A stretch of 64,000 nt of DNA from a phage. The stretch lies in NCBI GenBank assembly GCA_014437165.1, contig GCA_014437165.1_4090.3, one strand, 5' to 3'. The notes beneath the pieces were generated by a model. The model did no database searches and was not told where the DNA came from. It saw only the letters and a list, made by a program, of their open reading frames with translations. Positions 12,000 to 24,120 of the stretch are shown here, one piece after another. Each line of letters starts with the position of its first letter. Position 1 is the stretch's first letter. The position numbers and the translations under genes were made by a program.

Positions 12000-12383
12000 A
12001 ATACAGTACTGGCAACTCCACCGTCTGTAATATTTTGTCCAGTACTGTAAATTTGTATACCATCGGTTAAGTAAGTTCTGTATAAAGTTGCTGTAACATA
12101 TACGTTATTCATCTCTATTGGTAGTACACATTTGGTATAGGCCGACGCATCGGTTTGTGTACCTATACCTAATTGTCTTGTGTTATAACCAGTTGAGTAA
12201 ACACCTAATAAAGTTATAATATGATTAGAAAAATATTAATAACCCAAACTATTGAGAACCTCTACTGTACAACGTACCATCTGACATAAGGGCAAAAACT
12301 GTCTTATCAGATGAAGCTATTTTTGTAACAGAAGGTTGTATGTTCTTTTTTGATGATGTGATAATTCTTCGAAAGGGTAGCAT
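12000..12383 (-). pseudogene. decayed RCC1-like paralog (N-terminal fragment MLPFRRI.. plus out-of-frame remnant)
   Basis: Own TATAAT/GGAGGA/ATG cassette at 12381-12410 (minus); tagged N-terminus runs ~45 codons to a stop; downstream region translates to family-like C-terminal pieces in other frames. Confidence 0.45.
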
Positions 12384-12420
12384 TGTATCCTCCAAATGTA
12401 AATCGTTATTATATTTAGGA

Positions 12421-12448
12421 CAAAAAATGCCAGTACAAGGCACTGGCA
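12421..12448 (-). terminator. rho-independent terminator (minus strand)
   Basis: TGCCAGT-ACAAGGC-ACTGGCA hairpin followed by T6 on the minus strand. Confidence 0.6.
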
Positions 12449-12454
12449 TAAAAT

Positions 12455-13624
12455 CTAAGCAGAAGGCATATCCTTCATCTTAATAAATGAAAATTGTGTA
12501 CCAGTATTTGTGGTTTGATCAGTAAAATATGAATTACTACCAGCCCAGTACAATTCATTATTGACTATACAATATATAACAGAACTCGAACTCTGTGAAT
12601 ACACACGACTTATATTTGATTGTTCTACTCCAGTACTGAACTGAACTACTCCCAACTGTGAACTTGGTATTACATTAGTTGGTCTACCTAAACCGTTAAC
12701 ACCCGCTCCACCACCACATGTATATACTCCAGTACTATCAGTTGATATATTAACATAACCATTTCCAGCATTTTCAAATAGTATTTCACTGGGAACAACA
12801 CCAAATCCTGTAAGATCTATTTTCCTGAATGTAGTATAAACCGTAGAACCGCCAACACCTCTTCCACCATAATCATTAGAACCAGCCATATAGATACTAT
12901 ATCCAGAACTTCCTAAACATAATAACTGTACGTTGTCATATAATATTTGCATAGATATAACGTTATCAGGAATACTCAATACCGTAAAAGTAGTTAAAGA
13001 AGAACTTCCAATATTACTACCAACCGATGTTCCACATCTGTAGTACTTACCGCCTTTTATATAATGGAACGATGAACCGCCTAACTTATGTGCTCCTATT
13101 GCACTTACCCCAGTATCTATAAGAATGGGAGATACAACTTTGTTATTAACACCTAACTCAGATCTACTGTTCATACCGAACCCATATAAACGACCATCTA
13201 ACATCAATATTAGTGTACTACCGGAAGTACCCGCTGACGTAAATTCTATATTCTTTATTTGCGACACGTCAATACCTACAAATAATGAAGTTACTTCAGT
13301 CCAGTTAACATATGAACCACTAGCCCCAAAATATCCACCCATGTATAGACCTGCACAATATAATTTATTATCAACAGTCTTTATTAATGTACCGGATACA
13401 CACGCCCAAAAATCATCAACTTCATAGGGTACATGTACCCAACCACCTAATACATCACTAGCATCCCCTGTACCTAATTTATAGTTCGAACCAGAACCAC
13501 GCATGTACATATTCCCTGTACTATAAAGTAATCCGACATGTAATTGACTACCATCCAATTTCTTTATTTCAGGAAGAGTTGGTTTAATATTTCCGTACTT
13601 TAACATTCTTCCAAAAGGTAACAT
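12455..13624 (-). CDS. RCC1-like repeat (beta-propeller) protein with N-terminal MLPFGRM tag
   Basis: N-terminus MLPFGRMLKYGNI; repeated G-x-N-x-x-G-x-G/DG..Y..G motifs; RBS AAGGAG. Confidence 0.7.
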   Translation of the reverse strand: MLPFGRMLKYGNIKPTLPEIKKLDGSQLHVGLLYSTGNMYMRGSGSNYKLGTGDASDVLGGWVHVPYEVDDFWACVSGTLIKTVDNKLYCAGLYMGGYFGASGSYVNWTEVTSLFVGIDVSQIKNIEFTSAGTSGSTLILMLDGRLYGFGMNSRSELGVNNKVVSPILIDTGVSAIGAHKLGGSSFHYIKGGKYYRCGTSVGSNIGSSSLTTFTVLSIPDNVISMQILYDNVQLLCLGSSGYSIYMAGSNDYGGRGVGGSTVYTTFRKIDLTGFGVVPSEILFENAGNGYVNISTDSTGVYTCGGGAGVNGLGRPTNVIPSSQLGVVQFSTGVEQSNISRVYSQSSSSVIYCIVNNELYWAGSNSYFTDQTTNTGTQFSFIKMKDMPSA

Positions 13625-13634
13625 AATTTTCTCC

Positions 13635-21715: not shown

Positions 21716-21745
21716 AAAAAAGAATGCCAGTATCAAGTACTGGCA
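21716..21745 (-). terminator. rho-independent terminator (minus strand)
   Basis: Same TGCCAGTA-n-TACTGGCA hairpin as 20476-20505. Confidence 0.7.
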
Positions 21746-21750
21746 TTATG

Positions 21751-22860
21751 TTATTTTGGTAAATCAATTTTAGTAAAGACTGCAACATCCTCGATTGCAC
21801 CTGGAATGGCGTAATACGATCCAGTACTATACACATCTCCATTTTTGGTTAATATCGATGTCAAACCATCACTAAAAAGAACATCCCTAATCTCACTAAC
21901 TTCAACGGGTAATTGTAAATTGGTAGCACTATATATAGCACCAGTTTGAGAATTGTTTAATCCCAAACCACGGTTCGCCCCAACACCCTTCTGATATGTA
22001 CTAGTAATTACCATTTGTGTAGCAGTATTTAAGGCAGGTGAATTCGTCATAAACAACGGAGAACTATTAGGCAAAGTACTTAAAGGAACTGCACGGAATG
22101 TAGTCGTACCTGAACTAAGAAAGTTTGGAGTTTGACCACATACGAAATATGATGTACCATTATAGTAATTTAATGCATTACCACCAATGGCTGCATCGAT
22201 TACACCAGAACTACGCAATCCCCAAGTGTTAATTTGTGTTTGGTTCCCCGTACCATGCTGCCCACTACTATTCCATCCAGAACTATATAGCTTATTATCT
22301 AATGTAAGATACATACTATCATTCGCATTGGTCATTACTTTACGAACGTTCGTAGCACATTGAGTTAATGTGTAAATTGATGATGAACCAATACCCAAAG
22401 AACCACGATATCCATTATCTCCTGCACCATAGAGTACTGAATTAGTGCTAAGTACAAATATTAAACCATTTGTACATACAATATTAGCAATTTCACTTAC
22501 TGGTATAGCATTGGTAAACCAATTAGTTCTTTCAACTAATACAGTACTGTAAGAAGTAGTTGTAGAAGATGAGAACCAGTACGTTTGACCTGATGTCCAT
22601 ATCGTATTATCATTTTTAATAATAACAAGTGTACGATCACCCACGAAAAAATTAGAAACATCTGCACTTACTAATATCCATGAAGATACCGTGTTGGTAT
22701 TACCATTTCCAGATTCACCACCTTGATTTCTACCTATGTAATATAAATCATGTGAATCAGTCAATAAGAATTGGCCTTGGGTAGAAGCACCAACTTTAAT
22801 TATTTTTTTAGGACCAGGGACAATATTTCCATACCTAATTATTCTTCCAAAAGGTAACAT
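21751..22860 (-). CDS. RCC1-like repeat protein with N-terminal MLPFGRI tag
   Basis: Start at MLPFGRIIRYGNI (residue 8 of track ORF); GRNQGGESGNGNT and SSGWNSSGQHGTGNQ blades. Confidence 0.7.
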   Translation of the reverse strand: MLPFGRIIRYGNIVPGPKKIIKVGASTQGQFLLTDSHDLYYIGRNQGGESGNGNTNTVSSWILVSADVSNFFVGDRTLVIIKNDNTIWTSGQTYWFSSSTTTSYSTVLVERTNWFTNAIPVSEIANIVCTNGLIFVLSTNSVLYGAGDNGYRGSLGIGSSSIYTLTQCATNVRKVMTNANDSMYLTLDNKLYSSGWNSSGQHGTGNQTQINTWGLRSSGVIDAAIGGNALNYYNGTSYFVCGQTPNFLSSGTTTFRAVPLSTLPNSSPLFMTNSPALNTATQMVITSTYQKGVGANRGLGLNNSQTGAIYSATNLQLPVEVSEIRDVLFSDGLTSILTKNGDVYSTGSYYAIPGAIEDVAVFTKIDLPK

Positions 22861-22868
22861 ATTCCCTC

Positions 22869-24071
22869 CTATTGTTGCCATAACTGCGTTGGCATTAATG
22901 TTAGTGTAGTAATACTATAAGTGCCATCTGGCAATCTACCACCATTTCCATTCCAGCCACCACATGCATATAATTTATAATCTTTAGTAATTATTATGGT
23001 TCTGCTCCAATCTTTAGATGCCATAAGAACATTGTCATAACCACCACTTATTGCACTAAGATTAAAAATATTCCAAGTTCTAACTAATGTATTAGTTCCA
23101 TTACCTTCTTGACCATATGAGTTAGCACCACTACTTCTAACATATGGTGCGTATTGTGCCATAGGTGCACCAATTGATGCATTTCCCATATTACTTGGAC
23201 AAATAAAAGTACTGTACTTACTTACATCAACCGTGACCGATGTGTTCCTAATTGGTGTTAGCTGATTTACCGATGTAGTCGTACCATTACCAGCTTGTCC
23301 ATTACTGTTAGCCCCGCTATAATATACAGACCCACCAGTAGTAAACCACCAAGTAACATCGTATGTAGTACTAATATGTTCGACATCACTCATCACATAT
23401 TTGTTCAAATATATCATAGAACTAGCACCACAACCACTTTCACCGAAGTTATCCTTACCACAAAACCATGCCTTTTTATTTGATTTAATATAGTGCGTTC
23501 CTTGTAATGAACATGCCATATGTGTAACTTCACCCATATTAGTCATAACTGTTAGTGTGGGTATGGAATTTTGATTACCAGACCCACATTCACCATTGGT
23601 ATTTCTTCCACACGCAATTACTCTACCATCGGTTAATAATATTCTAGTACTTTCACCTATATATACACTCTTGATCATATTAGCCATAACACCAATTTTA
23701 TTAAATGCAACAGTAACATCAGTCCATGTTGTCAAAAAACCATTAACAGGTGTTGCATCTCCATAATCAGAAAATGCACCAACCGATCCAGTGTAGTATA
23801 TTTTATTATCCAAATCAATCATCAATGAACCTTGAACACCAAGCCAAAAGGCTGCACAGTTCCTTGCAAGTACTGTAAATGACGAAACTGCTGCTGAATT
23901 CCCAAGACCAAATTGATAAAAGTTATTACTACCATAACCATATAAAGTATTAGTTGGGTTATGTAGATACATACAGTTTGTATAATGTTGTTGTAAAACA
24001 TCTGAGAACTCTACAGGTTCTGGACCTGGTGCAATATTTGCGTACTTAATCATTCTTCCAAAAGGTAACAT
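22869..24071 (-). CDS. RCC1-like repeat protein with N-terminal MLPFGRM tag
   Basis: MLPFGRMIKYANI; GANSNGQAGNGTTT blade; stop 8 nt upstream of next gene's start (coupled). Confidence 0.7.
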   Translation of the reverse strand: MLPFGRMIKYANIAPGPEPVEFSDVLQQHYTNCMYLHNPTNTLYGYGSNNFYQFGLGNSAAVSSFTVLARNCAAFWLGVQGSLMIDLDNKIYYTGSVGAFSDYGDATPVNGFLTTWTDVTVAFNKIGVMANMIKSVYIGESTRILLTDGRVIACGRNTNGECGSGNQNSIPTLTVMTNMGEVTHMACSLQGTHYIKSNKKAWFCGKDNFGESGCGASSMIYLNKYVMSDVEHISTTYDVTWWFTTGGSVYYSGANSNGQAGNGTTTSVNQLTPIRNTSVTVDVSKYSTFICPSNMGNASIGAPMAQYAPYVRSSGANSYGQEGNGTNTLVRTWNIFNLSAISGGYDNVLMASKDWSRTIIITKDYKLYACGGWNGNGGRLPDGTYSITTLTLMPTQLWQQ

Positions 24072-24120
24072 ATTTCCCTCCTTTATTTGTTATATCATAT
24101 TTACCACAAAAAGAAAACCC

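Follow-up and report, generated by a model that had tools for sequence, protein, structure and literature searches.

An array of RCC1-like and glycine-rich genes in a Rak2-like jumbo coliphage shares a short N-terminal peptide that may act as a virion-incorporation tag

The 64,000-nt stretch of phage DNA analyzed here (contig GCA_014437165.1_4090.3 of GenBank assembly GCA_014437165.1; hereafter the window) belongs to an Asteriusvirus, a Rak2-like jumbo coliphage with ~99% identity to phages G17 and Sharanji. At positions 12249-24071 it contains a minus-strand gene array whose members open with the same short peptide, which we refer to as the tag. The pattern ATGTTACCTTTTNNNAGAAT opens exactly 10 minus-strand open reading frames (ORFs) in the window and none in 100 shuffles, confirming the common N-terminus first noticed in a sequence-only reading of this DNA; the tagged ATGs lie at 24071, 22860, 21680, 20439, 19219, 17959, 17151, 15967, 14814, and 13624. 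That reading had counted ten complete genes plus a frameshifted copy and a fragment. Our tally is eight intact RCC1-like propeller genes (369-400 amino acids, aa), one glycine-rich gene, one frameshifted propeller gene, and one N-terminal fragment, which makes nine intact genes rather than ten.

In the direction of transcription, the array begins with a 400-aa RCC1-like propeller gene (MLPFGRMIKYANI...; 22869-24071) that heads a two-gene unit with a 369-aa RCC1-like gene (21751-22860). The ATG of this second gene lies 8 nt past the upstream stop, which its ribosome-binding site (RBS) overlaps, and the gene lacks a separate promoter. Three RCC1-like genes of 389 aa (20511-21680), 382 aa (19291-20439), and 395 aa (18032-19219) follow, each with its own regulatory cassette (described below), and then the gene for a 245-aa glycine-rich protein (17222-17959). 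The next gene, RCC1-like and 391 aa long (15976-17151), heads a run from 17151 to 12455 that has no internal terminator. This run includes a 380-aa RCC1-like gene (14825-15967; ATG 8 nt past the upstream stop), the frameshifted RCC1-like gene (13625-14814), and a 389-aa RCC1-like gene (12455-13624), which is the last intact member of the array. The genes starting at 22860, 15967, and 14814 all have their ATG 8-10 nt past the preceding stop and lack a promoter or cassette, while the gene starting at 13624 has no upstream promoter, terminator, or cassette and is preceded by a ~380-nt frameshifted remnant. The array ends with a degenerate eleventh copy (12249-12383), a 44-aa remnant consisting of a tag variant (MLPFRRII) and the first blade, in which MLPF is kept with synonymous codons (CTA for Leu and CCC for Pro).

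The frameshifted copy reported by the sequence-only reading is real. When 14814-13625 was compared by blastx to its 396-aa ortholog in phage EJP2, the alignment ran in frame 1 and then in frame 2, dividing the gene into a 269-aa product (14005-14814) and an out-of-frame remainder (13625-14004). The frameshift is a 1-nt indel directly before a GQLGNG blade motif, with no slippery run at the indel. The 269-aa ORF is conserved in coliphages G17, 121Q, and phAPEC6, and its phAPEC6 ortholog, gp007 (98.9% identity), was seen in virions despite the truncation.

Much of the array is punctuated by a repeated intergenic sequence. Six hairpins of the form GCCAGTAC-NNN-GTACTGGC followed by a T-run are confined to the array, in agreement with the terminators proposed earlier; the loop is 3 nt, and an initial pattern with a 5-nt loop gave no matches. 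The promoter/RBS cassette GTATTAAATATAGTATAATGAATAAAGGAGG is present in five copies at no more than 2 mismatches, with 0 expected. The copy at 21685-21747 consists of the terminator hairpin, the T-run, a TAAATA late-promoter-like box, and AAGGAGG, and equivalent copies are found at 20445-20506, 19225-19284, 17965-18025, and 17156-17216, all on the minus strand. A degenerate cassette precedes the N-terminal fragment (hairpin at 12427-12449), and a hairpin-less variant lies at ~24072-24110 on the minus strand. The conserved TATAAT box that had been described before these genes did not hold up, as the number of sigma-70-like sites (59) was similar to that in shuffles (62) and the upstream element conserved across genera is instead TAAATA, ~30 nt before the ATG. 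This element resembles a T4-type late promoter and matches an ATAAATA motif that has been reported before structural genes of Pectobacterium phage CBB and likened to the T4 late promoter. The TAAATA boxes upstream of the tagged genes would therefore fit late expression.

Within the window the tag reads MLPF[GAVS]R[MI]xxY[GA]N, all 11 copies opening with MLPF-x-R-x-x-x-Y-[GA]-N, and its 12-residue consensus can be written M-[LI]-P-F-x-R-[MIL]-h-x-Y-G-N, with h for a hydrophobic residue. Among 17 aligned propellers, five of the 13 invariant columns fall within the first 12 residues (P3, F4, R6, Y10, and N12), while the other window paralogs, compared along their full aligned length, share 20-27% identity with the reference gene. 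Identity is thus not uniform along the genes. Recent duplication was ruled out as the source of the shared N-terminus by this low paralog identity together with the invariant tag and the synonymous changes across genera.

The codons of the tag provide insight into what is being conserved. In a set of 90 distinct tags, minor-allele frequencies are 28-57% at the third positions of the P3, R6, Y10, and G11 codons, and the first and second positions of the same codons vary by at most 7%. Because synonymous sites vary across phages while the amino acids stay fixed, this codon pattern shows that selection on the tag acts on the peptide and not on the DNA. Position 9 of these tags is variable (K in 41, E in 15, N in 9, and Q in 8), as is the sequence past N12, and no conserved Glu or L/I-x-E prohead-protease site was present in or after the tag. 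Separately, the window genes starting at 21680, 20439, and 19219 have identical variable tag codons, ATGATGAAT (MMN), and the G17 ortholog of the 389-aa gene has MIK at this place rather than MMN, though the two genes are ~98.5% identical. A very recent gene-conversion event in the tag is suggested by this difference.

We modeled the 400-aa propeller and the glycine-rich protein with AlphaFold2 (AF2) and searched the models with Foldseek. The propeller model (predicted local distance difference test score, pLDDT, 84; predicted template-modeling score, pTM, 0.85) superposes on UVR8, the HERC2 RLD, RPGR, and RCC1 with template-modeling (TM) scores of 0.73-0.79, and on this basis the array body is a predicted seven-bladed RCC1-like propeller, in line with the RCC1-type propellers proposed by the sequence-only reading. 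Sequence profiles gave the same result, with PF25390 (in the RCC1/RCC1_2/WD40_RLD Pfam set) matching nine of the ten genes and the gathering score of PF00415 or PF13540 being reached by seven, and a profile built from alignment A1 matched structure chains of HERC1, UVR8, RPGR, and RCC1 at E values of 1e-20 to 1e-32. None of the structure and sequence matches was a solved phage structure containing array proteins.

The body of the glycine-rich protein is unrelated to the propellers. No Pfam match was obtained for it at E<0.1 and no sequence match in the PDB, but it matches phrog_4474 (E value 3.6e-67) and appears related to PF21722 (Gly_rich_2) proteins; it has 206 phage and bacterial homologs, many of them with PF21722, and in other phages the family is joined to fn3 domains. 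Its AF2 model has a pLDDT of 90 and weakly resembles a fiber of cyanophage Pam3 (E value 1e-3, probability 0.97, TM 0.29), the Bxb1 tail tip, and the ALK glycine-rich domain. In both models the tag is poorly ordered: residues 1-27 of the propeller and residues 4-14 of the glycine-rich protein have pLDDT <50, and the first 20 residues of the latter average ~52. Since this low confidence recurs on two unrelated bodies, the tag is predicted to be a flexible extension outside either fold. We also considered that the tag might supply the strand that closes the propeller, but this was ruled out by the unstructured residues 1-27 and by the presence of the tag before non-propeller bodies. Conservation at residues 2, 4, 6, 8, 10, and 12 could correspond to one face of a beta-strand, or to an edge strand that docks by strand addition. 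In their composition, the ten tagged window proteins are near neutral (isoelectric points of 5.3-9.2), with ~12% charged residues and ~40% S/T/N/G. This resembles fiber and adhesin proteins and not DNA binders, and lends no support to DNA binding by the RCC1-like proteins.

To examine how widely the tag is distributed, viral contigs and annotated relatives were scanned with a degenerate DNA pattern. We identified 112 tag carriers that fall into nine BLAST clusters and at least four folds, and the tagged bodies include RCC1 propellers, Kelch propellers, ConA-like Laminin_G_3 domains (among them phrog_6011, a “virion structural protein”), and the glycine-rich domain. The sequence-only suggestion of a portable module, which was based on the glycine-rich gene at 17222-17959 and its unrelated body, is borne out by this range of folds in related phages. 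The tag is carried by 121Q, phAPEC6, G17, and EJP2 (14 genes in EJP2), and outside of these it is found in Erwinia phage Hallingskeid (10 genes), Pectobacterium phage CBB (8), Cronobacter phage GAP32 (4), Serratia phage BF, and four uncultured jumbo-phage contigs, of which three are 360-371 kb and one is 109 kb. The four tagged genes of GAP32 span the record ends. GAP32_531 is cut by these arbitrary ends of the linear record, with its tagged N-terminus MLPFVKMIKYGN at record positions ~126-1, so that GAP32_530, 531, 001, and 002 lie together as a single uninterrupted tagged array. The tag is retained where the upstream DNA is unrelated. A subtype, MLPF[PS]I[IV]S, was observed in Serratia phage BF (L005, 8 genes) and in CBB_552 and CBB_554; it is without the Arg and mostly without YGN, and occurs on RCC1-like and other bodies in the same genomes that hold the main subtype.

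Homologs of two of the tagged bodies, the ConA-like (phrog_6011) and the glycine-rich, are also encoded by rV5-like phages and by Serratia phage PCH45, but with a different N-terminus. In tblastn searches, the alignments to these phages begin only past residue 16-21. The proteins have a second shared N-terminal motif, M-x-E-[MA]-[ML]-L-x-G (also written M-x-E-M-L-L-x-G). Examples are MEEMLLTGG, MQEMLLGGL, and MFEAMLTAG in phage GAP31 (GAP31_094, 106, and 108; L046 5965-6615, 7171-7782, and 11900-12553), MLESMLAGK in PCH45 (L047 4959-5621), and MFEMMLATS in PVP-SE1 gp19, and many metagenomic glycine-rich homologs start with MLEMLxxG. A different phage lineage may possess, in this motif, a tag system parallel to that of the array. 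Shared bodies with lineage-specific N-termini look like the picture expected of a docking signal that is matched to the particle of each lineage.

To link the tag to the virion, we combined published virion proteomics of related phages with the tag status of each protein and calculated hypergeometric P values. Mass spectrometry (MS) of CBB virions, as given in the gene-level tables of its supplement, found CBB_247, 548, 549, 551, 552, and 553 with 1-7 peptides each, and with coverage of 50.7% for CBB_549 and 34.8% for CBB_553. Six of the eight tagged CBB proteins are therefore in the virion proteome, compared to 55 of 554 proteins overall (P = 1.8e-5). In phAPEC6, gp003, 005, 006, 007, 009, and 010 were found by MS, again six of the eight annotated tagged proteins compared to 62 of 551 (P = 3.8e-5). 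GAP32_001, which has been reported as a virion protein, also carries the tag. The published virion MS data make no distinction between head and tail, or between the interior and the exterior of the particle. The phAPEC6 record (L004) omits four tagged genes (3-1145, 2434-3543, 6063-7253, and 7325-8059), and its gp004 is a wrong-frame call over the glycine-rich gene; the unannotated tagged genes would have been undetectable by the published virion proteome. Hairs and collar or distal decorations have been seen on phAPEC6 and CBB with no proteins assigned to them, and these are candidate sites for the tagged proteins. Whiskers are present on CBB even though it lacks an RCC1 gene, which means that they are not formed by the propellers.

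Taken together, we believe that the array encodes late, low-copy, virion-associated accessory proteins, and that the tag is a portable incorporation signal on interchangeable binding modules, with a role as external adhesins favored; we assign this reading a probability of roughly 0.55. A virion-incorporation tag is favored because of the selection on the peptide, the at least four folds that carry it, its predicted disorder, and the enrichment of tagged proteins in virion proteomes. These points favor the idea of a shared docking or packaging signal on swappable scaffolds, already put forward in the sequence-only reading. The external role is favored because of the lectin-like and propeller folds, the fn3 fusions of the glycine-rich family, and the fiber-like composition, and by analogy the Kelch adsorption protein of phiKZ and the N-terminal loading peptide of KP32-type phages would point the same way. 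There are several points that weigh against this reading. The MS detections are low (1-7 peptides) and could represent co-purifying late proteins, and the fiber-like structural matches of the glycine-rich body are weak (TM ~0.29). Moreover, no conserved adjacent gene was identified as a receptor or chaperone, the docking partner having been sought among immediate neighbors only; the only conserved neighbor is a 256-aa protein (7677-8447), which marks synteny.

In the mechanism that we propose, each protein consists of a small, uncharged, S/T/N/G-rich module behind a flexible 12-residue tag, the module being a propeller or glycine-rich domain here and a Kelch or ConA-like domain in sister phages. 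One common site on the particle would recognize the tag, possibly by docking it as an edge beta-strand through strand addition, and any body fused behind the tag would be loaded. If displayed externally, these modules may tune adsorption and host range as accessory adhesins. The terminator/late promoter/RBS/tag cassette, homogenized within each genome, would serve as a recombination substrate for gene gain, gene loss, and body swapping. In a broader version of this proposal, MLPFxR(h)(h)xYGN would serve Rak2-like phages generally as a transferable signal for virion loading, recognized at a single receptor site open to all proteins with the tag, so that each phage could display or package a mixture of rapidly exchangeable monomeric modules. 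M-x-E-M-L-L-x-G would be its equivalent on homologous bodies in rV5-like phages, and modules would pass between lineages through the swapping of tags. We put this forward tentatively, at somewhat less than even odds.

The main rival to an external incorporation signal is that the tag functions like the capsid-targeting sequence of T4, binding the prohead scaffold core so that the proteins are packed in the head and ejected, for example as anti-defense effectors. The internal proteins of T-even phages are highly diverse and share only an N-terminal capsid-targeting sequence (PMC3012670), and phAPEC6 has both T4-like scaffold and prohead protease genes (gp226c and gp227c) and an inner body (PMC7247149). 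Each tagged protein is also low-copy, and the copy number and content of the locus vary among relatives, as in an arms-race locus. However, the absence of a conserved protease site in the tags, with K outnumbering E at position 9, is not what such a sequence would show, and the neutral, charge-poor tagged proteins are unlike the basic internal proteins. Their ConA-like, propeller, and glycine-rich bodies (the last fused to fn3 elsewhere) are typical of surface-exposed binders, and the Kelch protein of phiKZ virions acts in adsorption. On balance we consider capsid targeting unlikely, about one chance in a handful. Still less probable is that the tag works inside the infected cell, in chaperone recognition, localization, or turnover, and that what was detected in virions reflects abundant late proteins carried over into the preparations. 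The low peptide counts and the absence of a docking partner among the immediate neighbors would agree with this, as would the surroundings of the array, which are small genes of early type at a distance from the main structural module. It is difficult to reconcile with independent detection in three phages (GAP32, CBB, and phAPEC6) by at least two groups, with detection of most tagged proteins in both CBB and phAPEC6, with the coverage obtained for CBB_549 and CBB_553, and with the late-promoter-like motifs at tagged genes.

Two further explanations are less probable again. The conserved 5' end could be a nucleic-acid feature, either for translation initiation or as a gene-conversion tract that moves with the cassette, in which case the peptide itself would be without function. 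The first 12 nt are identical in 10/10 window copies, neighboring genes have the same variable codons (e.g., ATGATGAAT), and the cassette evolves in concert within a genome, all of which could be expected of such a feature. Yet the tag is kept in promoter-less copies and persists beside unrelated upstream DNA, and across phages its synonymous sites are free to vary while its amino acids are fixed; the codon analysis largely refutes this explanation, and we regard it as highly improbable. The least probable of all is that the RCC1-like proteins condense DNA or belong to the inner body, a view that derives from database names and from speculation based on chromatin binding by eukaryotic RCC1 (PMC7247149). 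The resemblance is to a generic propeller fold whose best matches are UVR8, HERC2, and RPGR, the proteins are close to neutral and poor in charged residues, and the same tag and locus carry lectin-like, Kelch, and glycine-rich bodies, with the CBB array being without any RCC1 gene. The “DNA condensation protein” label in databases has no support beyond the name of the fold.

Parts of this arrangement have been seen before. Multi-copy arrays of RCC1-like genes have been published for phAPEC6 (gp001-010), 121Q (121Q_234-248), and PBECO4, as well as GAP32_001, and some of these proteins were detected in virions; the arrays of these Rak2-like coliphages are the same locus and proteins as in the window, and the sequence-only reading, which did not recognize the arrangement from described phages, overlooked these published arrays. 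The papers reporting them take the “DNA condensation” view and make no mention of the shared peptide, the non-RCC1 tagged bodies, or the repeated cassette. In the open-access literature we found neither the shared peptide nor its carriage by folds that are unrelated, and likewise no account of the cassette or of the second tag in rV5-like phages; nothing relevant was found there on structures of Rak2-like virions. What is new is therefore the tag, its spread over folds, and the cassette, while the paralog array has already been published and the principle of N-terminal docking or targeting is known from KP32-type receptor-binding proteins (RBPs) and T4 internal proteins.

A close parallel is found in the Klebsiella podophages, whose secondary RBPs (KP32gp38 and KP34gp57) also keep a short N-terminal peptide in front of bodies that are otherwise unrelated. 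In KP32 RBP2, this conserved N-terminal peptide of 29 aa is required for loading onto the virion, and it can load a foreign body as well. It is longer than the tag and of other sequence. Its carriers are trimeric depolymerase tailspikes, each phage having a single secondary RBP, and the partner that it binds is a T4 gp10-like branching domain. The array, in contrast, has a 12-aa peptide on 9-16 small proteins per genome, two of which we modeled with AF2 as single chains. The internal proteins of T-even phages (IPI, IPII, IPIII, and Alt) likewise have a short shared N-terminal leader on hyperdiverse proteins, in a T4-related head-assembly background, but the tag of the array is without a conserved protease site and the array proteins are larger and neutral, with an adhesin-like composition. 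Lastly, gp298 of phiKZ is a low-abundance Kelch protein of the virion that is dispensable on one host and needed for adsorption to others. Like the array proteins it is a low-copy beta-propeller virion protein of a jumbo phage, but it is the product of a lone gene in a phage of an unrelated family, and neither a shared tag nor an array has been reported for it.

If the tag is sufficient for loading, it would explain the 9-16 puzzling “chromosome condensation” genes, which would be re-annotated as virion accessory binding modules, and it would bring unexplained low-copy parts of hairy jumbo-phage particles under an assembly rule that can be tested. It would also provide a minimal tag for the display or packaging of foreign proteins on large myoviruses. 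The long-standing question of how jumbo phages adjust their interaction with the host without changing core tail fibers would become directly testable. If the broader proposal of a general tag is true, it would amount to a previously unrecognized plug-and-play layer of virion composition, together with a display handle for the engineering of large myoviruses.

The array was initially described as a diversification locus, a label that fits only loosely. The 60 nt upstream of cassette-bearing genes have 84% identity among paralogs within the genome, compared to ~25% for the bodies, while between window genes and their EJP2 orthologs the upstream 60 nt share 62-65% identity and the bodies 74-81%. 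As paralogous upstream DNA is more alike within the genome than between orthologs, the cassettes evolve in concert. Among 37 relatives, each genome has between 5 and 16 cassette copies. Aligned directly, the window and G17 (MK327931) share 99.6% identity over 6000-19295 and 98.5% over 19169-24120, with two whole-gene indels (the window is without G17_00075 and G17_00070). The one junction with G17 that was resolved, at 19169-19295, aligns twice and corresponds to the repeated intergenic cassette plus a gene start. Strong divergence from G17, which was first suggested by a coverage of 62%, was ruled out by this alignment, as the low coverage resulted from the merging of repeated pieces. Copy number varies as entire genes are gained or lost at the repeated cassette, and the terminator/late promoter/RBS/tag cassette clearly illustrates how genes can be shuffled as modules when homologous recombination acts on regulatory and leader sequences. 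However, the left flank of the array, which consists of early genes, is nearly as mosaic among relatives, so the elevated variability is not specific to the array, and for this reason we do not claim any special hypervariability or dedicated diversification mechanism; no such mechanism was seen at the array.

The array is surrounded by small early-type genes, with the main structural module located elsewhere, and its position is syntenic in several genera, where it adjoins a run of small membrane-protein paralogs and the conserved 256-aa protein. On the other side of the array, a perfect sigma-70 consensus promoter (TTGACA-17-TATAAT; 24121-24149, plus strand) points away from it and leads into at least seven tandem small ORFs of 59-81 aa that are apparently paralogous (24121-25640, plus strand), a region with poor or no alignment to G17. 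The membrane-protein run in the window (~8500-11293, plus strand) is a tandem family of predicted proteins of ~100-125 aa that is convergent with the adjoining tagged array. The same family lies beside the array in Asteriusvirus and in CBB (L044 256-3172), GAP32 (L049 532-2253), EJP2, and Hallingskeid, and represents synteny across genera.

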